DNA of 64,000 nt from Vicinamibacteria bacterium (GTDB taxonomy: Bacteria > Acidobacteriota > Vicinamibacteria > Marinacidobacterales > Marinacidobacteraceae), in assembly GCA_963668695.2 (NCBI GenBank), contig CAXXLQ010000004.1, positions 288,001 through 352,000 on the forward strand, read 5' to 3'. The notes beneath the pieces are model-generated. The model saw only the letters and a list, made by a program, of their open reading frames with translations, ran no database searches and had not been told where the DNA came from. Positions 1 through 26,328 of the stretch are shown here, in pieces. Numbering within the stretch: the stretch's first letter is position 1; each line of letters begins with the position of its first letter. The translations under genes and the position numbers were made by a program.

Positions 1-609
1 GTGGGCGAGCGCTCCACGCAGCAGGGCGACGAGCTGTTTCGGATCCCCCGCGAAGGAGCGGGCCACGTAGGTGGCTCCGAGCTCGATTGCCATGCCGCAC
101 AGATCGATGCTGGGCAGCTTGTTCACCTCACCGGAACGGAGCGCCGCGTCTTCGTCGGCGGTCGCCGAGAACTGCCCCTTGGTCAGGCCGTACACCCCGT
201 TGTTCTCGACGATGTAGATCAGGGGCAGGTTTCGCCGAACCAGGTGCACGAACTGGCCAATCCCGATTGAGGCGGTGTCGCCATCGCCGGACACCCCGAT
301 CGCCACCAACTGGCGGTTGGCAAGCACCGCCCCGGTCGCGACCGACGGCATGCGCCCGTGGACCGCGTTGAAGCCGTGACTGTGATTCAGGAAGTACGCC
401 GGCGTCTTGGAGGAGCAGCCGATTCCCGAGAGCTTGGCAACCTGGTGGGGACGAACGTCGGACTCGAACAACGCGCGAATCAACTGGCTGGAAATCGCAT
501 CGTGGCCGCATCCCTTGCACAGGGTGGACGGCTTGCCCTTGTAGTCGGACGGCGTGAGACCCAACCGATTGACCCGGCGCGGTCGTGAAGAGGCATCTGG
601 AGTAGGCAT
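1..609 (-). CDS. korB: 2-oxoacid:ferredoxin oxidoreductase beta subunit (partial, runs off window start)
   Basis: Not in the ORF track. Manual translation from ATG 609 gives MPTPDASS...STLCKGCGHD...SGIGCSSKTP...HGRMPS...SGDGDTASIG...ENNGVYGLTKGQ, with the TPP-binding GDGD...NN motif. Lies downstream of the alpha subunit. Substrate cannot be determined. Confidence 0.93.
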   Translation of the reverse strand, partial: MPTPDASSRPRRVNRLGLTPSDYKGKPSTLCKGCGHDAISSQLIRALFESDVRPHQVAKLSGIGCSSKTPAYFLNHSHGFNAVHGRMPSVATGAVLANRQLVAIGVSGDGDTASIGIGQFVHLVRRNLPLIYIVENNGVYGLTKGQFSATADEDAALRSGEVNKLPSIDLCGMAIELGATYVARSFAGDPKQLVALLRGALAH

Positions 610-630
610 CAGGGGACTCCCGGTGCTAAG

Positions 631-845
631 TAGCCTATGGGCAAAGTCGCTTGAGCGCAGAGAGCGGTGAGGCGGCCGGCTGACAAGGCGCGCGAGGGAG
701 GAGCCCCCACCGGGAGAACTGGCCCGAGTGTATTTCGACCGAAGCGCAACGATGAGCGAAGCGCAGCGCCAGTTCTCCCGGTGGGGGGGCGGTTCAGCCG
801 GGATGCATCGCCGCTTGAACGCCGCGTGACTTTGTCCATAGGCTG
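631..845. mobile_element. MITE-like repeat family A, carrying two 19-bp motif insertions (704-722, 769-787)
   Basis: Terminal inverted repeats TAGCCTATGGGCAAAGTC...GACTTTGTCCATAGGCTG. CTAA at 846-849 overlaps the alpha-subunit stop codon. Confidence 0.85.
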
Positions 846-2699
846 CTAAACGGCGCCGATCTCCATCTCGGTCACGTAGTCCACAATGGTTTGCGCATCC
901 ATGGGGTGGCCGCTGAAGTGACGCAGGGTCCGAAGCACTCCCCGCGGAATCCGGTCGCCGTATTCGGCGCGCAGAAGCTGGAACATCTGTCCATCACGGT
1001 TCTGATCCAGGACCACGACTCGCTGCCGCGAGGTAATGAAGTCCAGCACCGATGGGGAGAACGGTAGCGCCCGGAGACGCAGGTAGTCCATTTCGATGGC
1101 CGCATCGTCCCGGAGCCGGGTCCGGGCTTCCTCGATGGCCGGATCGGACGAACCAAAGCCGATGATGCCGAGCGGGCTCGCGGAATCCAGCTGGTCCACA
1201 ACGGGCGCTGGAACCATCTCTCGGGCCGTTTCGAACTTCCGGTCGAGCCGGGTCATGATCCGGACGTACGCCTCTTCGCTCTCGGTGTATTCCGCGCTCT
1301 CGTCGTGTCCACTGCCCCTCGTGAAGTACGCGGCACCGGGGTGGTCCGTGCCGGGAAGCGTCCGATACGGGATCGCGTCGCCGTCCACATCCGCGTAGCG
1401 CTGGAAGGATCCCAGGCGTTCCAGATCCTCGCGGGTGAGGACCTTGCCGCGGTCCATCGGACGATCCGGATACTCGAAGGGCTCGGTACCCCAGATGTTC
1501 ATCCCGAGGTCCAGATCGGAGAGCACGAAAACAGGCGTCTGGAGCCGCTCGGCGAGATCAAAGGCCTTCCAGCCGAACTCGAAGCATTCCCGAGTCGAGG
1601 CAGGAATCAGGCAGACGTGTTTCGTGTCTCCGTGGGAGAGGGTGTAGGTGGAGAGAATGTCTCCCTGGGCCGTTCGCGTCGGCAGACCGGTCGAGGGGCC
1701 CACCCGCTGGATGTTCCAGATGACCAGGGGAATCTCGGCGTAGTAGCCGAGCCCGACGAACTCGGACATCAGAGAGATCCCCGGGCCCGAAGTGGCGGTC
1801 ATGGCCCGGGTTCCGGCCCAGCCGGCGGCAAGCGCCATCCCGACGGCCGCCAATTCGTCCTCGGCCTGAACAACCGCGTACGTCGCCTTGCCGTCCGAGT
1901 CCTTCCGGTAACGCTTGAGGAATCCCGTGAGCTGTTCGACGACGCTGGAAGAGGGAGTGATGGGATACCAGGTCGCGACGCTCACTCCACCAAACATGGC
2001 GCCGAGCGCGGCTGCGGCGTTTCCGTCGATGAGGATCTTGCCGCGGTTCTTGTCCATGCGCTCGAGAGTGAAGCGATCCCGCTTGACCAGGTTCTCGCGG
2101 GCGTGGCGGATTCCAATCTCCACCGCCCGGCGGTTCAACTCGACCGCCGCCTTCTTGCGCCGGAACTGGCTGTCTATGGCTCCGAAAATCTCCTCGATGT
2201 CGATCGAAAGGAGTTCTGCCAGCAATCCGACATAAATCATGTTCGCGAGGAGCTTGCGCAATCGAACTTCGCGGGTCACTTCCGCGGCCAGCTCCTGAAA
2301 GGGCGCCGGGTAGAACACCAGGTCGTCGCGGCGGCGCTCCAGGCGCAGGCTTTGTTCGTAGACCACGGCGCTGCCAGGGCTCAGGGACTCGACATCCCGG
2401 ATAGCGGTCTGGGGATTGAGCGCGACCAGGTACTCCACGTTCCGCTTCCGGGCAATCCAGCCGTCCCGGTTCGCGCGAATCGTGAACCAGGTCGGCAATC
2501 CCGCGATGTTGGACGGGAACAGGTTCTTTCCGCCGACCGGAATTCCCATGCGGAACAGCGCCCTGAGCAGGACGAGGTTTGCCGACTGGCTTCCGGAGCC
2601 GTTTACGGTGGCGACCTGGATGGTCAGGTCGTTGACGATGCGCTCTGGCTCGACCTCGCTGGGAGCAACTTCTTCAGCGAGCGCCGTTTTATTGGACAT
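846..2699 (-). CDS. korA: 2-oxoacid:ferredoxin oxidoreductase alpha subunit (fused gamma-alpha)
   Basis: NGSGSQSAN, YPITPSS, QAEDELAA, TSGPGISLM and QRVGPSTGLPT motifs. Confidence 0.95.
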   Translation of the reverse strand: MSNKTALAEEVAPSEVEPERIVNDLTIQVATVNGSGSQSANLVLLRALFRMGIPVGGKNLFPSNIAGLPTWFTIRANRDGWIARKRNVEYLVALNPQTAIRDVESLSPGSAVVYEQSLRLERRRDDLVFYPAPFQELAAEVTREVRLRKLLANMIYVGLLAELLSIDIEEIFGAIDSQFRRKKAAVELNRRAVEIGIRHARENLVKRDRFTLERMDKNRGKILIDGNAAAALGAMFGGVSVATWYPITPSSSVVEQLTGFLKRYRKDSDGKATYAVVQAEDELAAVGMALAAGWAGTRAMTATSGPGISLMSEFVGLGYYAEIPLVIWNIQRVGPSTGLPTRTAQGDILSTYTLSHGDTKHVCLIPASTRECFEFGWKAFDLAERLQTPVFVLSDLDLGMNIWGTEPFEYPDRPMDRGKVLTREDLERLGSFQRYADVDGDAIPYRTLPGTDHPGAAYFTRGSGHDESAEYTESEEAYVRIMTRLDRKFETAREMVPAPVVDQLDSASPLGIIGFGSSDPAIEEARTRLRDDAAIEMDYLRLRALPFSPSVLDFITSRQRVVVLDQNRDGQMFQLLRAEYGDRIPRGVLRTLRHFSGHPMDAQTIVDYVTEMEIGAV

Positions 2700-2954
2700 C
2701 AGGCGATTCTTCGGGACAAGAGCCGCTTCACGGTTCGGGCAGGGGGACGGCGAGACTTTGCTTTGGGGAATCCACGCAGGCTCCCGGGAAACCGAACAAC
2801 CAACGGGGTCGTGTGCCGGAGCGTTGCCGCATCCGGGCGCACCCCGGAGGTGCGGCAGTGTATCCCAATCTCAACCCTGAATTCAGAAAACTGGAGGCCG
2901 GGCGGACTGGAACTCTGAGGGGCACTAGACTTCCTTCTCCCGGGGAACGAACGG

Positions 2955-3779
2955 ATGCGACCCACCTGGCAGGGCAACCTCAAGTTGGCCCTCGTGCTCG
3001 TACCGGTGCGAGCCTACCCGGCGGCCCGCACGAGAACCGTCGCGATGAACCAGTTGCACAAGGAGTGCAAGGCTCGGGTGCGGTTGCAGAAGCGCTGCAC
3101 CTCCTGTGATCAGGATCTCGAACGGGACGAGATCGTTCGCGGTTATGAGTTCGCGAAGGACCAGTACGTGCTGATCCAGGAAGAGGACCTTTCCGCTCTG
3201 CAGCTCCCCTCACACAGAACCCTGGACATCGTCCAGTTCGTCGAGGAATCGGAGATCAATCCGCTCTACTACCACGGCTCCTACTACCTGGCGCCGGCGG
3301 GTGAGGTCGCGGCCGGGCCCTTCCACACCATCCTCAAAGCGATGCAGACGTCGAAGCGGGTAGCCATCGCCCAGGTCGTGCTCAGCGGCAAGGAAAAGGT
3401 GGTGGCGATTCGGCCCTCGGAAGGCGTGTTCGTGATGTCCTTCCTGCACTATGAGGACGAGGTGCGGCAGGTGCCTGATATCGACGACCTGCCGGCGGCG
3501 AGGGAACCAAACGGCGCGGAGACCGCGATGGCCCGGCAGCTGCTGGACTCCTATGCGCGGCCGTTTGACCTGAGCGCGTTCGAGGACGGCTATCGAAAGC
3601 GCTTCCTGGAGATCGTGGAGGCCAAGAGTCGCGGTCAGGAACTGGTCACCACTCCAAGCGTCGAGCCGCGTCGGGTTGTCAACCTCATGGATGCCTTGAA
3701 ATCGAGCCTCGCGAGGATCGAGGCCGAGGGATTGGGCGAAGGTGATCCGGCGCTCGGCGAGGAGCGGCGGGCAAGCTGA
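2955..3779 (+). CDS. ku: NHEJ DNA end-binding protein Ku
   Basis: MRPTWQGNLKLALVLVPV, EIVRGYE, TLDIVQFV, YYLAP and VVNLMDALKSSL motifs. Confidence 0.95.
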   Translation: MRPTWQGNLKLALVLVPVRAYPAARTRTVAMNQLHKECKARVRLQKRCTSCDQDLERDEIVRGYEFAKDQYVLIQEEDLSALQLPSHRTLDIVQFVEESEINPLYYHGSYYLAPAGEVAAGPFHTILKAMQTSKRVAIAQVVLSGKEKVVAIRPSEGVFVMSFLHYEDEVRQVPDIDDLPAAREPNGAETAMARQLLDSYARPFDLSAFEDGYRKRFLEIVEAKSRGQELVTTPSVEPRRVVNLMDALKSSLARIEAEGLGEGDPALGEERRAS

Positions 3780-3868
3780 CCGACTCGAATCCCGAAACCC
3801 GGGACGCGGATTGGCCCGCGCCCTCGGAAGGTCAGCCAATACTCCCGCCCGAATGGCTCGCGCGGGGA

Positions 3869-4810
3869 GTGAAGCCCATGCTCGCCGGTGTGGGCCGTCC
3901 GTTCGATTCGCCGGATCACCTCTTTGACGCCAAGTGGGATGGCCTACGTTCGATCGCGTTCTTCGGGCCGGTGGTCCGGCTCCAGGCGCGAAGTCTCCGG
4001 GACCAGACCCGACAGTTCCCGGAACTCGCGGCGGCCCTTTCCGAACTTCCCGGGGCCGGGGTCATCGACGGGGAGATCGTGGTCATGGACGGGGACCGCT
4101 CCAGCTTTCCGCTGGTCATGGAGCGCAATCGGCTGCGGTCGGAGACCGCGATTCGGCGCGCCGCGACAAATGCCCCCGCGTGGTTCGTCGCCTTCGATCT
4201 GCTCCATCGTGACGGCAGACGGCTTACCGCCGCCCCCCTTGTCGGACGACGGCGGGCCTTGCGCGCTCTGCTTCCCGGTGCCGGAGGGCGGATCTTCGCG
4301 AATCCGCTCGTGGTCGGCGACGGTCTCCGCTTCTTCGCCGCGATGCGCGAGCGGAGTATGGAAGGGATGGTCGCCAAGCGGCTCCAAAGTGCGTACCGCA
4401 TCGGCGAGCGCAGCGAAGACTGGCTGAAGATCAAGATCCGTCCGCGACTGAGTTGTGTGGTCTTCGGCACCCTGCACCGGACACCGGGAGGGCCGGTGCG
4501 TTCGCTGGTGGTGGGGGCGTTCGGGCCGGAGGGGCCGGTATGGCTCGGGAATGTGGGTAGCGGACTCGACGACGCTACCCGGATGGAGCTGGCGCGGCAG
4601 CTCGACAGCCTCGAATGCCCCCCTCCCCCTGGTTTCGATCCCACCGGGGAGGGGCACATCCGTTACGTGAGACCCCTCCTGGTGGCCTCAGTCGAGTACC
4701 TCGAGCTGACCCCGGCAGGGCACCTCCGCCATCCCGCCTTCATGGGGTTCGAAGATCGAGACCCGCGCTCGTGCCGCGTGCCGGTCACAGCACGTCCAGC
4801 AGATCCCTGA
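3869..4810 (+). CDS. ligD: ATP-dependent DNA ligase (stand-alone LigD/LigC-type ligase domain)
   Basis: KWDG adenylation motif, IDGEIV, AFDLL, EGMVAKR, WLKIK, GNVGSG, LRHPAF. No polymerase or phosphoesterase domain. Adjacent to ku. Confidence 0.88.
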   Translation: MKPMLAGVGRPFDSPDHLFDAKWDGLRSIAFFGPVVRLQARSLRDQTRQFPELAAALSELPGAGVIDGEIVVMDGDRSSFPLVMERNRLRSETAIRRAATNAPAWFVAFDLLHRDGRRLTAAPLVGRRRALRALLPGAGGRIFANPLVVGDGLRFFAAMRERSMEGMVAKRLQSAYRIGERSEDWLKIKIRPRLSCVVFGTLHRTPGGPVRSLVVGAFGPEGPVWLGNVGSGLDDATRMELARQLDSLECPPPPGFDPTGEGHIRYVRPLLVASVEYLELTPAGHLRHPAFMGFEDRDPRSCRVPVTARPADP

Positions 4811-16614: not shown

Positions 16615-19236
16615 TCAGGCCGGAACCAGCTCGGCTCTGTCCGCCACCCCGCGCGGAGCGACCTCAATCGTTCCGCCGGCATCGCTCCGCACCTCGACCA
16701 AGGCTCCGGGCGGAAGCACCCCGCCAACGATCATCCGCGCGACCGGTGTCTCGACCCGGTGCTGGATGACCCGCCGAACGGGACGGGCGCCATAGAGCGG
16801 GTCGTACCCCTCGGCGGCAAGGACTCTGAGGGCGTCCTCGGTCACCTCGAGCGTGAGGTCTTGCTCGCGGACCCGTTCACGGAGCCGGTCCAGCTGGAGG
16901 TTCACGATTTCGGTCACCTGGTCCCGGGTGAGGCTCCGGAACACGACGGTTTCGTCCACCCGGTTCAGGAACTCGGGCGGGAACTCGCGCCGAAGCTCCG
17001 AAATCACTTCGCGCTTCATCTCGTCATATCCGCGTCCCGCCTCGGCAAGCGCCAGCACCCGCTCACTCCCGACGTTCGACGTCATGATGAGTACCGTGTT
17101 GCGGAAGTTGACCAGCCGGCCGTGCGAGTCGGTGAGCCGGCCGTCGTCGAGCACCTGAAGCAGCACGGTCCGCACCTGTGGGTGGGCCTTTTCGATTTCA
17201 TCCAGCAGGACAACCGCGAACGGCCGGCGGCGCACCGCCTCCGTCAACTGGCCACCCTCTTCGAAGCCGACATATCCGGGGGGCGCCCCGGTCAGCCGGG
17301 ACACCGAGTGCTTCTCGGTGTACTCGGACATGTCCAGGCGCACCACGGCGTGCTCGTCATCGAAGAGTTCGGCGGCGAGCGCGCGGGCGAGTTCGGTCTT
17401 TCCCACCCCGGTGGGGCCGGCGAACAGGAAGGCGCCGAGCGGCCGATCCGGATCCTGGACGCCGGCGCGAGCGCGGACCACCGCGTCGGCCACCGCCCGT
17501 ACCCCTTCGTCCTGTCCGATGACCCGGCGGTGGAGCAGGTCTCCCAGCCGCAGCAGTTTTTCCCGCTCGCCTTCGAGCAGCCGGTCCACCGGGATACCCG
17601 TCGACCGCGCAACCACCGAGGCTACGTCGGAGGCGTCCACCTCCTCACGAAGGAGACGACCGTCCTGCCCACCGAGCCGCGTCTCCGCGGCCGTCAGTTC
17701 GCGTTTCAGTTCCTCGATGGTCCCGTACCGGAGTTCGGCCGCCCGGCCGAGGTCCTGCTCGCGTTCAGCCCGCTCCATCTGGAGGTTCGCCTCTTCGATC
17801 CGCTCGCGAAGCCTCCGCACCCCAAGGAGCTGCGCTTTCTCGCCCTGCCACTGGGTGCGGAGGGCTCGCGCCTCCTCTTCGAGGTCGGCGATCCGCCGTT
17901 CGAGTTCCGTGAGTCGCTTGCGCGAAGCGTCGTCCTTTTCCTTCTTCAGCGCCTCACGCTCGATCTGAAGCGACAGGAGCCTCCGCTCCACCTCGTCGAG
18001 ACTGGTGGGAACACTGTCCATCTCGGTCCGCAGGCGGGCGCCCGCCTCGTCCACCAGATCGATGGCCTTGTCGGGCAGGAAGCGGCCGGAGATGTAACGG
18101 CTGGACATGGACGCCGCGGCCAGGAGCGCGCCGTCCTGGATCCGGACGCCGTGGTGGACCTCGTAGCGCTCCTTGAGGCCGCGCAGGATGGTCACGGTGT
18201 CCGGGACGGAGGGCTCATCAACCACCACGGTCTGGAACCGCCGTTCGAGCGCGGCATCCTTTTCGATGTACTGGCGGTATTCGTCCAGGGTGGTCGCCCC
18301 GATGCAGTGCAGGTCCCCCCGGGCGAGCGCCGGCTTCAGCAGGTTGGAGGCATCCATCGCGCCGTCGGTTCGGCCGGCGCCGACGACGGTATGCAACTCG
18401 TCGACGAAGAGAATGACCCTTCCGTCCGACTCCTGCACGGCGCCAAGCACCGCCCTGAGCCGCTCTTCGAACTCGCCCCGGAACTTCGCACCGGCGATGA
18501 GCGCCCCCATATCGAGCGCCACGACCTGCCGGTCGCGGAGCCCTTCGGGTACGTCACCCTTCACGATCCGGAGCGCCAGCCCCTCCGCGATGGCCGTCTT
18601 GCCGACTCCCGGTTCCCCGAGCAGCACCGGGTTGTTCTTGGTACGCCGAGACAGGATCTGCATGACCCGCCGGATCTCATCGTCACGACCGATGACCGGG
18701 TCCAGTTTGTCGGCACGGGCGAGGGACGTCAGGTCCCGCCCGTATTTCTGGAGTGGCTCGTAGGCGCTCTCGGGGTTGGGGCTTGAGGCGCGTGCGGGAC
18801 CGCGCACCGCCTTGATCGCTCCTTCGAGCCTCTTCCGGTCCACTCCGACGGCGCGGAGAGCATGGCTGGCCGCCGACTTCTGCAAGACCAGAGCGAGGAG
18901 GAGATGTTCCACGCTCAGGAACTCGTCCCCGAGCCTTCGCGCCTCCTCCGACGCGGTGTGAATCACCTTGGCGAGCCCCTGGGATGCGGAAGGCGAGCCC
19001 TCGGCTGCGTAGTGCTGCACCGGCAGCGCACCAAGGGCCGTGTCCAGGTTGCGACCCAGAGCGGAGGGTTCGACGTCCAGCCGGCGAAGGAGCCGGAGAG
19101 CAAGCCCATCGGGCGCATCGTCGAGCAAGGCGGCGAGCAGGTGCTCGGGAGTGGTTTCCGGGTTTGGGCGCCCTCCTGCGAGGCTTGCAGCCCGCGACAG
19201 TGCAGCGCCAGCACGTTCGGTAGCGGAAAGAGACAT
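16615..19236 (-). CDS. clpB: ATP-dependent chaperone ClpB
   Basis: Clp N-repeats, GEPGVGKT, coiled-coil M domain, [22 protein letters not shown]. Confidence 0.97.
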
Positions 19237-19402
19237 GATCTATCTACTCCATACTCATTAAATCTGATGTGTAGTATAGCCGATTCTCCTGACAAAGCAC
19301 ACAGAACCGAGGGAACAAGGACCGGCGGGCTCGCCCCGGCGCGCCGGCTCCGCTCGCTGGGGCACTCCAGCCGGGTGGCGGGGGCTAACGGCCAGGCGCT
19401 AA

Positions 19403-19853
19403 CAGCCGGTGGTGGAACCCGCGTGAGCGCCGAGGCCGGCGAGGCCCAGTTCTCCCGGTGGGGGTCCGGCTGACAAGGCGCGTGAGGAAGGAATACCGGG
19501 TGTATTTCGACCGAAACGCAACGATGAGCGGCACGCAGCGACGCGGTCAACAGCCGGTGGTGGAACCCGCGTGAGCGCCGAGGCCGGCGAGGCCCAGTTC
19601 TCCCGGTGGGGGTCCGGCTGACAAGGCGCGTGAGGGAGGAATACCGAGTGTATTTCGACCGAAACGCAACGCTGAGCGACGCGAAGCGACGCGGTTCAGC
19701 CGGGATGGATCGCCGGTCGAACGCCGCGCGAGTTTCATTACAGGCTGTTTCGCCGGGATGGATCGCCGGCCGAACGCCGCGCGGGTTTCATTACAGGCTG
19801 TTTCGCCGGGATGGATCGCCGGCCGAACGCCGCCTAGGTTTCACAACCGGCTG
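19403..19853. mobile_element. Compound family A repeat upstream of clpB
   Basis: Two overlapping bodies plus tandem end duplications. Starts after CTAA. Confidence 0.85.
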
Positions 19854-20064
19854 TTTCGGGACCCTCGCGTCCGGACGCACCGACGAAACCAGAACAGGTC
19901 AGGACCGGCAGGCGCGGGTAGCGGGGATAGCGCGCGTCCGAGAACGAACGCTCGCAAAGGGTGAAACGGGTGCGGCGCGACGCCACGATCCGGGCGTGGC
20001 AGCAGGTCTCGCAGAGCCCGGCGAGATGGCCCGCAGACACGACCGGTTCGCGCGGCTGGCTCAT
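19834..20064 (-). CDS. Small Cys-rich conserved hypothetical protein
   Basis: ATG preceded by GGAAGGGGGG. Sequence GLCETCCHAR...LCERS..DARYPRYPRLPVLTCSGF. Stop codon lies inside the adjacent repeat. Confidence 0.7.
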   Translation of the reverse strand: MSQPREPVVSAGHLAGLCETCCHARIVASRRTRFTLCERSFSDARYPRYPRLPVLTCSGFVGASGREGPETAGCET

Positions 20065-20086
20065 CCCCCCTTCCCGACGCAGCCGC

Positions 20087-21277
20087 TCAGATGATGCCGC
20101 GGGCCCGGCCGCATTCCGCAAACGCGGCGACCGCCCGGTCCACCTGCTCGTCGTCATGGGCGGCAGACAACTGCACCCGGATCCGGGCCTTTCCGCGCGC
20201 GACCACGGGAAAGCTGAACCCGATGACGTAGATCCCGCGTTCGAGCAGATCGTCCGCCATGCCGCTCGCGAGACGGGCGTCGCCGAGCATGACGGGGACG
20301 ATGGGGTGCTCGCCCGCCGGAATTGTGAACCCGGCGGCCGTCATGGCTTCGCGAAACCGCCGGGTGTTCCGACGGAGCCGCTGTCTGGGCTCTTCGGTGG
20401 CCGAAAGGAGCGAAACGACCTCGATCGCAGCCGAGACGATGGCCGGGGCCAGGGTGTTCGAGAAGAGATAGGGGCGGCTCCGCTGGCGGAGCAGCGCGAC
20501 GATCTCGCCGCGTCCCGACGTGAACCCGCCAGCAGCTCCGCCGAGGGCCTTCCCGAGCGTGGAGGTGATGATGTCCACCCGCTCGGAGACCCCGAACCGC
20601 TCCGGCGTTCCGCGCCCGGTTTCTCCGATGAAGCCGGTGGCGTGCGAGTCGTCCACCATGACGAGCGCCTGGTGACGGTCGGCGAGGTCGCAGATCGCAT
20701 CGAGCGGCGCCAGGGTTCCGTCCATGCTGAAGACCCCGTCGGTCGCGATCAGTTTGCGCCGCGCGCCGGAGCACTCATCGAGTTTGGCGGCGAGGTCGTC
20801 CATGTCGCGGTTCCGGTAGCGGAAGCGCTGGGCCCGGCAAAGGCGCACGCCGTCGATGATGCTGGCGTGGTTCAGTTCGTCGCTGAGGATGGCGTCATCG
20901 GGACCGAGAATGGTCTCGAAGAGGCCACCGTTCGCATCAAAGCACGAGCTGTAGAGGATGGTGTCCTCGGTGCCCAGAAACTCGGCAATCCGCCGCTCCA
21001 ACTCGCGGTGAATGTCCTGGGTGCCGCAGATGAAGCGGACCGAGCTGAGCCCGAACCCGCGCTCGTCGAGCCCCCGGCGGGCGGCGGCGAGCACCCGCGG
21101 ATCGTTCCCGAGACCGAGGTAGTTGTTGGCGCAGAAGTTGAGGACTTCACGTCCCCCGACCCGGATCAGGGCTCCCTGAGGGGAGGCGATCAGGCGTTCC
21201 CGTTTCTCCAGACCCGCGTCCTGGATCGCGGTCACCTCGCCGCGGATGGAAGAAAGGACTTCAGCGTTCATGGGCAT
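20087..21277 (-). CDS. kbl: Glycine C-acetyltransferase (2-amino-3-ketobutyrate CoA ligase)
   Basis: [57 protein letters not shown]. Confidence 0.96.
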
Positions 21278-21445
21278 GATTCCTCGGGGGCGAGACTCTA
21301 TCCGGTGGCAGGCGGCGTCAGGGAGGGCGACGCGCCGACCAGGGACCGCCGGCCAGGGACGGCGGCGCATCGGCCAGGGACCGCCGGCCAGTTCTCCCGG
21401 TGGGGGAGTCCAGACCGGCATCGCGGCCCGCCGGGCCGCGAAACT

Positions 21446-22035
21446 CAGGTCGCAGTAGCAGGACTGGCGGGACGCCAACATGTCGCACTAGCCGGTTCCG
21501 CCGGATATACATGTCGCACTAGCGGGATCGGCGGGACGCCAACATGTCGCACTAGCCGGATCTGCCGGGCGAACATGTCGCACTAGCGGGATCGGCGGAA
21601 CGCGAACATGTCGCACTAGCCGGATCTGCCGGGCGAACATGTCGCACTAGCGGGATCGGCGGGACGCCAACATGTCGCACTAGCCGGTTCCGCCGGATGT
21701 ACATGTCGCACTAGCGGGATCGGCGGGACGCCAACATGTCGCACTAGCCGGTTCCGCCGGATGTACATGTCGCACTAGCGGGATCGGCGGGACGCCAACA
21801 TGTCGCACTAGCCGGTTCCGCCGGGCGAACATGTCGGCCTAGCAGGACCGGCAGGACGCCAACATGTCGCACTAGCCGGATCTGCCGCGCGAACATGTCG
21901 CAATAGCAGGGTCGGCGGAACGCGAACATGTCGCACTAGCCGGATCTGCCGCGCGAACATGTCGCACTACCGGGATCAGCGGGACGCCAACATGTCGCAG
22001 TAGCCGGATCTGCCGGGCGAACATGTCGCTCTAGC
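21446..22035. repeat. Array of 19 ACATGTCGCACTAGC cores with alternating 16/18-bp linkers (64-bp dimer period)
   Basis: Read directly from the sequence. Linkers alternate between CGGATCTGCCGGGCGA-type and GGGATCGGCGGGACGCCA-type. Confidence 0.95.
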
Positions 22036-22087
22036 GATTCGACAAACCCTGATTCGAAATCTCGGGGGGCTCCGGTAGGCTGTCGCC

Positions 22088-22663
22088 GTGGCCGACGACG
22101 GGAGACAGCGGGCAGAGCTGCGGGGCGCGATCCGGGAAGAGGGATTCCGTCTCGGGTTCTCCGCGGTCGGATTCGCCCCACCTCGGATGCCCGAAGCCGG
22201 CCGGCAGTTCGAAAAGTGGCTGGACGATGGGAACCACGGGACCATGCACTGGATGGCCACGGATCCCGGCCGGCGGAGCGACGCCACGAGGACACGGGTT
22301 CGCGACGGGAACGATTCGGCCGCATTGCCAGAGCGGACCGTCGTGGCCTGCGGACTCAACTACTACCAGGGGGGTCCGGCCTCCGCGCCCTCCGGCGGCG
22401 GGGTGGTTTCCCAATACGCTCAAGGCGAGGACTACCACCGGGTGCTGGATTCGAAGCTCCGCGCCCTTGCGGCGTTCGCCCAAGCCCGCGCCATCAAAGC
22501 CGGCCTGCTGCCCGAGCGCTCGCCGGGCGCGCGCCGGCGCATCCCGACCCTCGTGGATCACGGACCGCTGCTTGAGAAGGCGTTCGCGGAACGGGCTGGC
22601 CTGGGATGGATCGGCAAGCACTCGAACGTGATCGCCACCCGGGGCAGCTCGTGGTTCTTCCTC
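22088..22663 (+). pseudogene. queG: Truncated epoxyqueuosine reductase (N-terminal half)
   Basis: WLDDGNHGTMHWM, SQYAQGEDYHRVL, VDHGPLLEKAFAERAGLGWIGKHS..GSSWFFL. Homology then stops and the 4Fe-4S CxxCxxC half is absent. Confidence 0.85.
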
Positions 22664-22860
22664 CGGCGGACGGGTGCGCCCCTACGGGAAGCCGCCCGGT
22701 CGGACCAAGCCCATCACCGCTGCGCGTTTCGCGGCCCTGCGGGCCGCGATGCCGACCGGAGGTCGGCGGTCCCCTCACTCCCCGCGCTTGCCGCCGTTCA
22801 GCACTCCGCCTTTCACCAGCCTTCGGCTGGCAGTGCCGGTCTTCAGGCCCCCTATAGGAT

Positions 22861-23060
22861 CACGGGCGTTGTGTAGGAGGCGGTTTCGCCTCCTACTTCA
22901 TCAACTTCGGTTGGCCGATCCGCCGGGAGTACCAAGAGGCCCCGGTGCCGCAAGCACCTGTGGTGGACCAGTACCCCGACGGATGGCCGTGATGGGACAC
23001 CCTGTGGAGAGTTGTGCCGATCGAGCACCAATATAGGGCTTGACTGCCATCGCGGCAAGG
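22861..23060 (+). ncRNA. Candidate IS110 bridge RNA (non-coding left end)
   Basis: 5' hairpin at 22873-22896. Segments match the donor junction (GGAGAGT 23006-23012, TATAGG 23032-23037) across an inner hairpin. Target-like segments at 22920-22947. Confidence 0.5.
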
Positions 23061-23072
23061 CGGACCGCTCGA

Positions 23073-23769
23073 CACCGGCGACGGCGCGGAAGGTGCGGTG
23101 CTCCACCTGGGAGAAGCTGCTGCGGCACTACGGGGTGACCCGGATCAGCGCGGACCGGGTGGTTGCGTTGTTTCGTGAGGAGGCGCTGACGGTGGCGCCC
23201 GGGGCCACCGCCGCGGCGGTGGAGACGATTCGGACGGCGTTGGCCCTGCTGGAGGTTGTGAACGCGGAGATCGCGCGTGCGGAGAAGCAGATGACGCAGT
23301 TCCTGGATGCGCTGTCGGAGACGGAAGCGGTGGGAGGCGGCGCGGGCGCGACGGCTCCGGATCCGGTCACCATCCTGCGGTCTCGGAAGGGGTTGGGAGA
23401 CAAGGCGCTGGCGCGGCTGTTCGCCTGGGGATTCGAGGCGGTGTGCGCCGGGGACCACGGCCGGTTGCGAGCGGCCTCCGGGGCGGCCCCCCCGTCCGGG
23501 TGCAGTCCGGAGAGCGCGACACGGCCCGGATGCGGCGTGCGGTGCCCTACTCGCTGCAGCAGGCCGCCTACCTCCTGGCACGCGGGGTGTTGCGCTGGGA
23601 CGAGGACGTGAAGGCATACAGCCGGAAGCTGAAGGACGCGGGGAAGACGACGGCCCGGCGGCATCGCGCCATCGCCGACCAGCAGTTCCGGGTGTTATGC
23701 GCGATGGCGCGACACCGCACCTTCTTCGACCCGAACTTCGCCGCCAGGAGCCCAAAATCCGCCGCCTGA
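23073..23769 (+). pseudogene. IS110 transposase/recombinase remnant (C-terminal half, frameshifted)
   Basis: TPATARKVR...ILRSRKGLG...SGAAP / PVRVQSGE...ARRHRAIAD...TFFDP. Frameshift at the C7 run 23487-23493. N-terminal DEDD RuvC domain missing. Confidence 0.82.
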
Positions 23770-23774
23770 CTTAA

Positions 23775-23953
23775 CAGCCTGTGGCGAAACCCACGCGGCG
23801 TTCAACCGGCGATCCATCCCGGCTGAACCACTCCGCTTCGCTGCGTTCTGCGTTGCGTTTCGGTCGAAATACACCCGGTATTCCTCCCTCACGCGCCTTG
23901 TCAGCCGGGCGCCTCACCGGCCTCGGCGCTCACGCGGGTTCCACCACAGGCTG
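23775..23953. mobile_element. Family A MITE (179 bp, no 19-bp motif) inserted inside the IS110 right end
   Basis: Perfect TTAA duplication at 23771-23774 and 23954-23957. Confidence 0.92.
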
Positions 23954-24038
23954 TTAACCCTCCCTTCCTCCTTGCATTCTCCAGGAGAGTCCACCGGGAG
24001 AACTGGCCGGCGGTCCCTGCCGGACGGATCCTCGGCGC

Positions 24039-25436
24039 CTAGCGAATCGCGGCCTGCATCTCCTCGACGCTCACGAACTTCACCCGCGGACGGCCCTCGG
24101 CCTTGCCGCGCGCCACCTCGAGGGCGTCCAGCGCCTTCCAGTCGGCGAACGAGAAGTAGGTGGGAACGCGCTCGGCCACGAAGCGCTCCGCCGACTCGGC
24201 GGACGGGGATTCCGGGTGCCAGTGCTTGCCGGCCGCGACGTCCTCGAGCAGCACCCGCACGGTCTCCAGGGCGTCGGGCTTGTTGGTGCCGATCACCCCG
24301 GTGGGACCGCGCTTGATCCAACCGGCGCAGTACTGGCCTTCCTGGTGCTCCCCGTCCGGGGAGTCGAGCACCCGGCCGACCGCGTGCGGGATGACTCCCC
24401 AGTCATCGCGGAACGGCACGTCGGGTAGCGCGACCCCCCGGTAGCCGACCGAACGGAACACCAGACCGGCAGCGAGATCCTCGAAATGATCGGTGGCGCG
24501 CGGGCGGACCGTGCCCCGTTCGTTGCGGTAGAGCTCGTTCTTCACGAGCTTGACCCGGGTAACCGCACCATCTTCGCCGGCAATCAGTTCCACTGGGGAA
24601 ACGAGGAACCGGACGGTCAGCGTTCGCAGTTTGCCGGACCGTTTTTCGGCGGCGTACTGCTGGAGGATCTCGACCTTCCTCGGGGCCGACCTGTCGGCGC
24701 CGGAATCCACCCATTCCTGGCTCACCGCATCAAGCGCCGCTTCTTCTTCGAAGACCCGGATGTCGGCGCCCGCGAGTTCCCCGAGCTCCTTGATCTCGGG
24801 ATTGCTGAACGCAGCCTGCGCCGGACCCCGCCGGCCGAGCATGTGGATCTCGCGAATCCGGCTCTCCGCGAGCTGCTCCAGCGCGTAATCAGCGATGTCG
24901 GTCGTTTTCAGCTCGTCCACGGAACGGGCCAGCACCCGGCAGACATCCACTGCCACATTGCCGACCCCGACGACCGCGACCGATTCCTGGGAAAGGTCGA
25001 ACTCCCGATCCCGGTAGTCCGGGTGACCGTTGTACCAGGCCACGAACTCGGTCGCCGCGTGGCTCCTGCCGAGGGACTCGCCGGGAATCCGCATGGCCCG
25101 GTCCACCTGCGCCCCCACGCAATAGAGGACCGCGTGGTAGTGGCGCCGGACATCGGCCAGCCGGATGTCGCTCCCGAACTCGACGCCCCCGTAGAAGCGG
25201 AAGCGCGGGTTCTGCGCGGTGCGCTCGTAGGCGCGGGTCACCGACTTGATCTTCTGGTGATCGGGAGCCACCCCGCCGCGCACCAGACCGTAGGGGGTCG
25301 GCAGGCGGTCGTAGAGGTCCACCTCCACGGTGACCCCAGCGGCCTTGAAGAGATGATCGGTTGCGTAGAAGCCGGTCGGGCCGGATCCGAAGACCGCGAC
25401 CCGCAGCGGGTGTTCGGGGGTGCCGGGTTTCGTCAC
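24039..25436 (-). CDS. Ferredoxin/adrenodoxin-NADP+ reductase (FprA-like)
   Basis: GSGPTGFY, PYGLVRGGVAPDH, FVAWYNGHPD, GVGNVAVD, GRRGP, GWIKRGPTGVIGTN. Confidence 0.93.
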   Translation of the reverse strand: MTKPGTPEHPLRVAVFGSGPTGFYATDHLFKAAGVTVEVDLYDRLPTPYGLVRGGVAPDHQKIKSVTRAYERTAQNPRFRFYGGVEFGSDIRLADVRRHYHAVLYCVGAQVDRAMRIPGESLGRSHAATEFVAWYNGHPDYRDREFDLSQESVAVVGVGNVAVDVCRVLARSVDELKTTDIADYALEQLAESRIREIHMLGRRGPAQAAFSNPEIKELGELAGADIRVFEEEAALDAVSQEWVDSGADRSAPRKVEILQQYAAEKRSGKLRTLTVRFLVSPVELIAGEDGAVTRVKLVKNELYRNERGTVRPRATDHFEDLAAGLVFRSVGYRGVALPDVPFRDDWGVIPHAVGRVLDSPDGEHQEGQYCAGWIKRGPTGVIGTNKPDALETVRVLLEDVAAGKHWHPESPSAESAERFVAERVPTYFSFADWKALDALEVARGKAEGRPRVKFVSVEEMQAAIR

Positions 25437-25524
25437 TTGGGCGCGGAGTATAGGGCGACCGAGAGCCGCTCTTCGGCGGCTATCACGGCGCGTTGCCGCC
25501 GGAACGGTTCGGCGCCTCCGGGTG

Positions 25525-26328
25525 TCAGCGCTGGCGGAGAAGCGCGAGTATTTCATCGCGGGTGACGATCGTCCGGCCTTCCTCCAGAAAGGGAAGCACA
25601 TCCTTCACGACCTGTTCCCAGGCAACGGTTTCCAGACGGCGCGCCGCGTCATCGCGCCATGCTTTGGCCGTCGGCTGAAGACCCCGGGAGGCGCAACTCC
25701 GGCGCAGCGCCGCATCGAGCAACGCAAAGTTGGGCGCGGGCCATTCCGGATCCGCCAGGTACCAGGCAAGGTCGTAGACATCCCGCCCCTTCGCGTAGGG
25801 GCGGCACAGGATCGCATGCAGTTTGCCCGCAAGGAGCGATGCTCGATCGTGGTGACGGAGCCGGAGGCTGACGTGCCGCCGGATCGTTCGCGTCTCGGTG
25901 ACCGCGCCCGCTGGCGGATTCGTGTCCACTTCCATCTTGATCGCCAGCTTCTGGGTGGGATGCGGAGCGAGGCGCGCCTCATACAAGAGACCCGGGAAGC
26001 GCAGCCAGGCGGCATGGACCGCGCCGCGGTCGCGGAGTGCGGCTTCGACCTCATAGCCCTCGCGGCGGAATTGGCGAGCGACCTCCGTCTGCCAGCCCTC
26101 GATGTCATAGGCATCGCGGTCACCCTCGAGCGCGAAGTCGAGATCCTCGGAGTAGCGCGGAAGCCGGAAGAGGAAACGGAGGGCGGTACCGCCGCAGAAG
26201 GCGAGCGGGCCGGTCGCGCCGAGGCGCTGCAACGTCTCCAGGACGCGGGCCTGCAGGTATTCGCGCATTACGTTGCGGCCGTGGGCCAGTCCCGCTTCGC
26301 GCGCAAGCTGGAGCGCGTGGTCCTTCAC
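25525..26328 (-). CDS. AbiEii-family nucleotidyltransferase toxin (type IV TA)
   Basis: FCGGTALRF, RYSEDLDF, IKMEVD, KLHA...KGRDVYDL. Confidence 0.92.
   Translation of the reverse strand: MKDHALQLAREAGLAHGRNVMREYLQARVLETLQRLGATGPLAFCGGTALRFLFRLPRYSEDLDFALEGDRDAYDIEGWQTEVARQFRREGYEVEAALRDRGAVHAAWLRFPGLLYEARLAPHPTQKLAIKMEVDTNPPAGAVTETRTIRRHVSLRLRHHDRASLLAGKLHAILCRPYAKGRDVYDLAWYLADPEWPAPNFALLDAALRRSCASRGLQPTAKAWRDDAARRLETVAWEQVVKDVLPFLEEGRTIVTRDEILALLRQR

Follow-up and report, generated by a model that had tools for sequence, protein, structure and literature searches.

Does an IS110-group insertion sequence whose recombinase is without its catalytic part still encode an intact bridge RNA, and, if so, is that RNA a retained functional module or part of a recently inactivated relic? 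This question is raised by a locus within a 64,000-nucleotide stretch of DNA from a Vicinamibacteria bacterium (hereafter the window, to which positions refer). An initial annotation, made from the letters alone, had proposed that positions 22861-23060 hold the guide RNA of an IS110-group element, and had suggested that the region be folded, that a covariance model be built from homologous left ends, and that covariation be sought between the loop segments and the target and donor sequences. The assignment as a guide RNA is borne out by the match to our covariance model (R1), by the fold, by covariation and by the guide matches.

The Element and Its Locus

The window contains a single copy of an IS110-group insertion sequence at 22853-23990 on the plus strand, inserted in a REP-like repeat of very high copy number. 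The ends and flanks of the element were located by comparison of copies and by conserved end motifs: the upstream flank, ending in TTCAGGCCCCC, is followed by TATAGG, and the last letters of the element, TTGCATTCTCCAGGAGAGT, are followed by CC and ACCGGGAGAAC. The left target flank, GGTCTTCAGGCCCCC (22838-22852, plus strand), is one half of the REP-like repeat with the CC core at its end, and the intact relative L093 is preceded by the same type of flank. The non-coding left end, which begins with TATAGG (22853-23066, plus strand), shares 93% identity with its counterparts in intact elements of genome G004; these elements are the closest relatives at the DNA level, with 82% identity over the coding remnant. 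On the basis of the sequence and the comparison of ends, the right end (23959-23990, plus strand) was found to contain a -35-like TTGCAT (23972-23977) and to terminate in GGAGAGT (23984-23990), and a TTG[AC]NN motif was observed 12-13 nt before the core in 16 of the 16 right ends found. It is followed by the core CC and the right target flank ACCGGGAGAAC (23991-24003, plus strand), which sequence and repeat counts place in the REP-like repeat.

The repeat is represented by CCACCGGGAGAAC, with 1,373 copies in the 4.1-Mb genome and 28 in the window, whereas the genome counts of AGGCCCCCACCG and AGGCCCCACCG are 84 and 11, respectively. It is an unusually dense REP-like repeat family that serves as an IS110 target. 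Insertion is sequence-specific and without long terminal inverted repeats, multi-copy relatives having common flanks and the target being a repeat. The conserved 14-nt right arm of the target, which the initial annotation had offered as a possible sign of a longer recognition site, is instead explained by this genome-wide repeat of 1,373 copies, as the right target guide pairs with only about 6 nt of it. Several distinct contexts were also observed upstream of CCACCGGGAGAAC, for example, AGGGAGGAGCCC (280 times) and CCGGCCGAGCCC (194 times).

A DNA search with the full 1,171-nt query matched the own genome twice, at the window locus and in contig C1 (G000 L002, positions 136841-138009). Contig C1 is 144.5 kb long and duplicates part of C4, and the C1 copy has the same flanking genes as the window locus at 99.87% identity. 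The 100% "second copy" in C1 was therefore rejected as a sign of transposition, and we regard C1 as a redundant haplotype or strain contig and not as a second insertion. The C1/C4 duplication is assembly redundancy or strain heterogeneity, in agreement with the contamination estimate of 9.3%; differences between the two contigs were observed in a homopolymer run and in tandem-repeat number. A third copy in the own genome, L003, is 96% identical, differently truncated and without any left end, and the only intact IS110-family gene of this genome is L021, which encodes 415 aa with PF01548 and PF02371. As for candidates of an empty site, a record joining 22748 to 23991 with nine other letters was set aside, because it looks like another REP copy.

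Some additional observations concern the surroundings of these copies. The L003 remnant is flanked by direct repeats of about 70 bp (GGCGTGGGAGCCGTCCCC...), located by eye at about 1228-1300 and 2478-2545. Upstream of the window element, a queG-like gene (22088-22660) has a PF08331 match at residues 83-136; its similarity fades beyond about 22660, the interval up to the convergent oxidoreductase gene (24039-25601) shows no 3' half, and the queG-like gene appears to be truncated by the cluster of the repeat and the insertion sequence. At about 21400-22030, staggered 50-aa open reading frames reveal a tandem array of units of about 64 bp, and the window and the C1 haplotype have different numbers of these units, a difference of about 260 bp.

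Homology and Fold of the Bridge RNA

A structurally intact bridge RNA, about 195 nt long, is encoded by the left end of the element at about 22866-23059 on the plus strand. Its core, composed of a target-binding arm and a donor-binding arm (22910-23059, plus strand), is matched over the full length by covariance model R1, which was built from an alignment (A2) of 13 left ends adjoining intact recombinase genes, with the window excluded, and has 152 positions and 26 pairs. The match covers model positions 1-152 of 152 with a score of 120.1 bits (E 1.2e-23), and copies beside intact genes score 102.7-153 bits. No Rfam match was obtained over 19000-26000 at E up to 1; thus, the family assignment rests on our own model and the literature.

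Comparison with relatives places the region outside coding sequence. The non-coding stretch 5' of the L021 gene is visibly homologous to 22861-23060, and the 3' end of the homologous RNA in relatives falls about 60 nt short of the start codon of intact genes of 415-422 aa; in the window, the bridge RNA precedes a recombinase remnant on the same strand. Recombinase matches were found in 10 of 61 genomes (protein search of the own genome and 60 relatives), with the loci oriented by tblastn in this high-GC DNA, and the remnant shows 65-71% protein identity to the recombinases of G009 and G014. A conserved 22-nt motif was also encountered in two Brevundimonas MAG contigs, where the matches were dismissed as due to chance, with unrelated surroundings and no R1 match.

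Variations in the distribution and layout of the family were observed as well. A contig labelled as a Gemmatimonadaceae MAG (L124) carries a G010-type element with a bridge RNA of 132.9 bits and a recombinase 89% identical to that of L028, which represents either horizontal transfer or a binning error. In G037 (L031, L037 and L045), some 1.2 kb separate the bridge RNA from the left end upstream of it, and in one G004/G008 lineage (L033 and L025) about 340 bp are inserted between the left terminus and the 5' hairpin, indicating that insertions are tolerated within the left end.

The strings named in the initial annotation were all recovered at the positions it gave, namely GTAGGAGGCG-GTTT-CGCCTCCTAC at 22873-22896, CCGCCGGGAGTAC at 22920-22932, AGGCCCC at 22937-22943, CCCGGTG at 22941-22947, GGAGAGT at 23006-23012 and TATAGG at 23032-23037. 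Folding of the region revealed a 5' hairpin followed by two arms; the single-sequence fold (z -3.16) was matched by 0 of 200 shuffles, and it agrees with the two arms obtained by RNAalifold on a MAFFT alignment of 14 sequences, in which 15 of 27 pairs have two-sided changes.

The 5' stem-loop (22873-22896, plus strand), supported by sequence and fold, consists of a perfect 10-bp stem and the loop GTTT. A hairpin with a differing stem sequence occupies the equivalent place in all eight lineages folded, two of which fold no better than shuffles. The target-binding arm (22919-22983, plus strand) was delimited by fold and covariation, and has a basal stem (22919-22932 with 22971-22983), a 5' loop strand (22933-22943), an inner hairpin (22944-22958) and a 3' loop strand (22959-22970); its helix 1 comprises 12 pairs, seven of them with two-sided changes, and 97.7% of the cells are paired. 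The segment CCGCCGGGAGTAC, which had been interpreted as a guide because of its resemblance to the target, turned out to be the 5' strand of this basal stem: it pairs with GTACCCCGACGG and is near-invariant among lineages with unrelated targets, and thus belongs to the scaffold. The donor-binding arm (22986-23056, plus strand), delimited in the same way, has a basal stem (22986-22994 with 23048-23056; helix 4, nine pairs) and an inner hairpin, GUGC (23014-23017) with GCAC (23025-23028), which was left out of the pair counts because it has no single column register.

In a larger alignment of 25 rows (A3), which was fitted to the model and is hence biased toward structure, 94.6% of 627 cells are paired, compared with 26.7-51.7% when the partners are slid by one to three columns, and both-sided (compensatory) changes occur in 15 of 26 pairs, values reached by 0 of 500 shuffles; the MAFFT-based count is similar. 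Between the window and the intact L093, there are 14 differences over 214 nt, and none disrupts a helix. These include a compensatory pair at 23015/23027 (U-A in the window, C-G in L093) and a U.G versus C-G difference at 22932, where the window has C-G.

A perfect 10-bp hairpin is not rare by itself, as the window contains 30 inverted repeats of at least 10 nt with at most 12 nt between the arms, and short matches taken alone are weak evidence, since a 6-7-mer match within 200 nt is also not rare. It is the covariance match, the fold compared with shuffles, the hairpin in eight of eight lineages and the tracking of the guides that make the matches more than chance.

Guides, Core and Specificity

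The specificity of the four guides was assessed in a matrix of the longest exact match of each loop strand to each junction, which covers 12-13 elements of about five target classes, kin not being independent. The left target guide, AGGCCCC (22937-22943, plus strand), has the same sense as the left flank and would pair with the bottom strand; its cognate match is 7 nt, compared with 3-5 nt to the flanks of other classes, and the similarity of this string to the left target flank had been recognized correctly in the initial annotation. The right target guide, UGGUGG (22961-22966, plus strand), is complementary to CC-ACCG of the right flank with one G.U pair and has a cognate match of 6 nt versus 3-4 nt in other classes; relatives have CGGUGG in its place. 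In the donor-binding loop, the 5'-side guide GGAGAGT (23006-23012, plus strand; LDG in IS621 nomenclature) is identical to the right end at 23984-23990 over 7 nt, and the 3'-side guide UAUAGGG (23032-23038, plus strand; RDG) is complementary to the core and left end, (C)CCTATA, over 6-7 nt. The interpretation of this part as a donor-binding loop, with GGAGAGT corresponding to the right end, TATAGG complementary to core plus left end, and a GTGC..GCAC hairpin between them, was thus sound. The 5' donor guides of relatives match their own right ends over 8-10 nt, with 7 nt in the window and 8 nt in G004.

A different right-flank guide had been suggested, CCCGGTG, and this is not upheld: the segment consists of the end of the left guide and the inner stem GGUGC/GCACC, and covariation places the right guide at 22961-22966, on the 3' side of the loop as in IS621. 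In L021, the right flank has no match to the segment corresponding to CCCGGTG, but is matched over 8 nt by the 3' strand.

For three of the four guides, the matrices are block-diagonal, with 6-10 nt in cognate classes versus mostly 2-5 nt for the others, so that covariation of loop segments with target or donor is seen for these three across lineages. The close relatives L031 and L030 differ jointly in right target guide and right flank, the own match being 8 nt versus 5 nt. The 3' donor guide gives 6-7 nt for almost every pair, because the start of the left end (TATA) is conserved elsewhere, and it separates only the G037/G050 lineage, in which it covaries as GUACAGGG with CCCTGTAC. Several exceptions to the matrices were also observed. 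The left target guides of L088 and L032 reach 7 nt to another class; the match of L033 to its own left flank is only 5 nt; and, in L027, the 5' donor guide has an exact match of only 5 nt to its own right end versus 8-9 nt to the window class, owing to one G/A position read as wobble. A run of five C makes the exact place of the core ambiguous, and, subject to this, the left target guide extends over one to two core bases, with the 5' donor guide reaching the core by U.G wobble only. All four guides of the window copy are still intact and cognate to the element's own flanks and ends.

If it works as its IS621 homologue does, the bridge RNA would consist of the 5' hairpin followed by two stem-loops that both contain an internal loop. 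The second loop would pair with the joined ends of the element, GGAGAGU with the right end and UAUAGGG with the core and left end, and the RNA-bound DEDD/serine recombinase would then exchange strands at the CC core.

The Internal Deletion and the Recombinase Remnant

Homology to intact left ends continues up to about 23066, and from 23069 the DNA aligns to the recombinase at residue ~191. The deletion junction was thus placed at 23066-23068 (plus strand) by alignment to L093 and comparison with L003, and the missing DNA was estimated from the coordinates of L027 and L093 at about 0.6 kb. The deletion starts 10 nt past the last helix of the bridge RNA and removes the ribosome-binding region and codons 1 to ~190, including the whole DEDD/RuvC domain (PF01548, at residues 9-166 in relatives). 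No PF01548 match was found in the window frames, in the in-frame C1 variant or at the locus in a six-frame genome search, and the loss of the RuvC half, as described in the initial annotation, is therefore confirmed. Inspection of the junction by eye gave no convincing microhomology or core-flanked guide match.

According to open reading frames and protein alignment, the remnant itself (23069-23769, plus strand) comprises the linker and the Transposase_20 domain and is frameshifted in a C7 run at 23487-23493. Being 2 nt shorter, the C1 variant stays in frame, with a PF02371 match of 22.7 bits against a cut-off of 21.3, whereas a Pfam search of the two remnant frames of the window gave no match because the frameshift splits PF02371. 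As the start and the whole DEDD/RuvC domain are deleted, the copy is presumably unable to move by itself; the RNA gene and both ends are still intact.

Between the stop codon and the right end lies a 187-bp hairpin repeat (23772-23958) with TTAA on both sides, of which at least 37 further copies at ≥90% exist in the genome. It is also present in L003, and its acquisition therefore predates the loss of the element's ability to copy itself. The repeat, which was also found in the 19606-19750 region, has the terminal inverted repeats CAGCCTGTGG, and the further genome copies, counted among the 40 of 731 candidates that were scored, are matches of 179 nt or more at no less than 90% identity. The fold of the repeat is a single long hairpin, stronger on the minus strand (z -9.08 versus -4.66), and there is no Rfam match. 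Summed contig depths over its 3' half range from 47 to 4,280 in four RNA runs of three studies, with 0-25 over its neighbors; possibly, it is an abundant hairpin RNA or an active MITE.

Promoters and Expression

No sigma-70-like promoter was found on the plus strand within 22500-24100. By analogy with IS621, the -10-like TATAGG of the left end and the -35-like TTGCAT of the right end would form a promoter only in the circular form, and the lack of a plus-strand promoter in the linear copy fits such a junction-only arrangement. The sole promoter-like site in 22500-24100 is antisense (23058-23030, minus strand, TTGCCG-17-TATATT), and, as it shares sequence with the TATA-rich 3' donor guide, it may be a mere by-product of that guide.

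A metatranscriptome contig (X17) of 444 nt with a depth of 5.2 spans 22571-23014; it gives neither ends nor strand, and DNA carry-over is possible. As the contig starts upstream of the element, it suggests at most read-through, by which the region may be transcribed. Other RNA runs have no cover over the bridge RNA and are uninformative either way.

Relic or Retained Module

We consider it probable that the account as a whole is the following: an IS110 copy in a REP-like repeat carries an intact IS621-like bridge RNA and has suffered a DEDD-deleting loss of about 0.6 kb, and it is more likely a recently inactivated relic than a retained functional module. Against a pure relic, the closer conservation of the left end (93%) than of the coding remnant (82%) relative to G004, together with the compensatory pair, indicates that the RNA was under structural constraint at least until recently, window-specific changes not being datable relative to the deletion; the helix-preserving differences from L093, with the C-G pair at 22932, count in the same direction. 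In the own genome, the deleted form was observed at one locus only, plus the redundant C1 haplotype; its junction does not occur in 15 other genomes of the genus, and the 34-nt junction sequence was found 0 times in public metagenome and genome contig collections, which may omit the records of the own genome.

The fate of the RNA in other defective copies agrees with this. Among 55 R1 matches in 15 of the 61 genomes, sorted by eye, 41 have as neighbor a full-length open gene or one whose match begins at residue 33, three lie beside a gene with a stop or frameshifts, one beside an insertion-split gene, and six beside internally deleted or truncated genes (five loci: the window with its C1 twin, L084, L074, L083 and L091); one has no gene found (L085), and three are at contig ends or not examined. 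Defective loci that retain the RNA are L084, L074, L083 and L063, and those in which it is lost or truncated are L091, L003, L086 and L039. In L091, the 3' half of the donor loop is gone, and the gene fragments L003, L086 and L039 are without any RNA, which implies that decay takes away either part. The initial annotation's suggestion that the RNA was kept so that the copy could be mobilized or supply guide in trans is accordingly not supported, given a single locus, a junction absent elsewhere and relatives that keep or lose the RNA haphazardly; neither retention of the RNA by selection nor mobilization of the copy was indicated by any result.

In a fuller version of that suggestion, the deleted copy could be a working non-autonomous element, the RNA of which is expressed and loaded on a recombinase made elsewhere, mobilizing the copy or adding target specificity to a paralogue; we regard this as unlikely. 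The ends, the core and four cognate guides are all intact, the bridge RNA of IS621 functions in trans (PMC11208160), and recombinase-only IS110s of about 800 bp, for which RNA in trans is suggested, are described in a preprint (10.64898/2026.08.14.744561). Target-like sites are plentiful, as shown by the 84 copies of AGGCCCCCACCG; a contig from an RNA library covers part of the region; and the genome has an intact recombinase, L021, whose RNA has the same conserved scaffold. However, L021 is only 37% identical to the remnant over the shared part, with its own RNA and other donor guides, and no second insertion was found in the own genome, in the 15 congeners or in public contigs. In addition, 22500-24100 holds no sigma-70-like plus-strand promoter, and the same preprint reports truncated-recombinase elements as inactive.

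Two relatives extend this idea beyond the window. L084 of G004 (1939-2458) is a mini-element of about 520 bp composed of the left end, the complete bridge RNA (128.2 bits), a fusion of codons 1-29 with codons 369-417, and the right end, and L074 of G037 is a further internally deleted element with left end, RNA and right end. Internally deleted copies that keep left end, bridge RNA and right end arose at least three times in this clade (window, L084 and L074), and the window copy shares with MITE-like derivatives the retention of both ends together with the loss of transposase function. Such copies could be non-autonomous "mini bridge elements," the RNA recruiting the recombinase of another copy for their own movement or for extra target specificity among >1,000 REP-like sites, a proposal we think slightly more doubtful than that of a working copy at the window locus. 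The L084 junction occurs once in G004 and not in G007, G008 or G010, so that the mini-element is likewise single-copy, and neither of these two deleted forms was found at a second site.

Two further explanations would dispense with a guide RNA altogether. The left end could be mainly a 5' untranslated leader that controls translation or stability of the recombinase mRNA, with incidental guide-like matches, as the long 5' UTR of ISPpu9 folds and inhibits translation (PMC12288879) and the RNA ends about 60 nt before the start codon in intact relatives. A pure leader would not have loops that covary with target and donor across at least five target classes, and the architecture is that of the IS621 bridge RNA, which makes this explanation very improbable. 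Even less credence can be given to degenerate recombinase coding sequence or chance structure, for which one might cite an open frame of 120 aa (22674-23036) and a TTG-started frame from 23012 that cross the region. There is no Pfam match, the substitutions preserve base pairs, and the region aligns not to transposase coding sequence, as degeneration of the gene would imply, but to non-coding DNA upstream of the start codons of intact genes; this alignment and the R1 match led us to reject it. A recently inactivated relic with an intact bridge RNA remains the preferred explanation.

Relation to Known Systems and Significance

The closest known system is IS621 and the IS110 group, as described in PMC11208160 and PMC11208158, in which the RNA likewise lies in a long non-coding left end on the strand of the DEDD plus Transposase_20 recombinase. 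In the published account of IS621 (PMC11208160), the RNA also has a 5' hairpin and then two internal-loop stem-loops, the 5' strands of the loops are same-sense to the left target and right end, and the 3' strands are complementary to the core plus right target and left end; a REP-like repeat as target, a TTG..-type -35 in the right end and a TATA..-type -10 in the left end are further likenesses. The window family differs in that it is distinct in sequence and has no Rfam match. In addition, its core is apparently CC (TC in the L021 lineage) rather than CT, its guides cover the core partially, and the window copy is without the N-terminal domain of the recombinase.

Ssr9 of ISPpu9 in Pseudomonas putida offers a second comparison, as it also belongs to an IS110-family element in REP sequences (PMC12288879). 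Small-RNA pieces with boxes resembling the ends of the insertion sequence exist there apart from the transposase gene, and the authors propose that they are MITE-like and mobilized in trans (PMC12288879). However, according to the same source, Ssr9 is not a bridge RNA and is dispensable for transposition, and ssr9 modules are multi-copy and form circles, whereas the window retains the bridge RNA itself, in a deleted element that is single-copy and shows no evidence of circles. Compact IS110s without a 5' UTR, as reported in the preprint (10.64898/2026.08.14.744561), have recombinase and bridge RNA in separate loci, implying trans action; they represent the reciprocal case, a recombinase without RNA. 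The seekRNA or bridge RNA of the IS1111 group shares the recombinase family and the guide logic, but is described (PMC11208160) as encoded past the gene, within a right end, in elements that have long subterminal inverted repeats, in contrast to the left-end position in the window. In the parts of the IS110 bridge RNA literature consulted here, recombinase-deleted, RNA-retaining copies are not described as a class, and the supplementary tables of Durrant 2024 may already list the family.

The locus itself looks like ordinary decay of an insertion sequence. Its significance lies first in the fact that a bridge RNA was recognizable from raw sequence, and second in the natural family to which it belongs, which in marine Acidobacteriota MAGs comprises about five target classes, with both CC and TC cores and a target repeat of >1,000 copies, and which provides potential orthologues for work on bridge recombinases. 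If a paralogous recombinase could make use of the bridge RNA of a dead element in trans, decay would not render IS110 copies inert.
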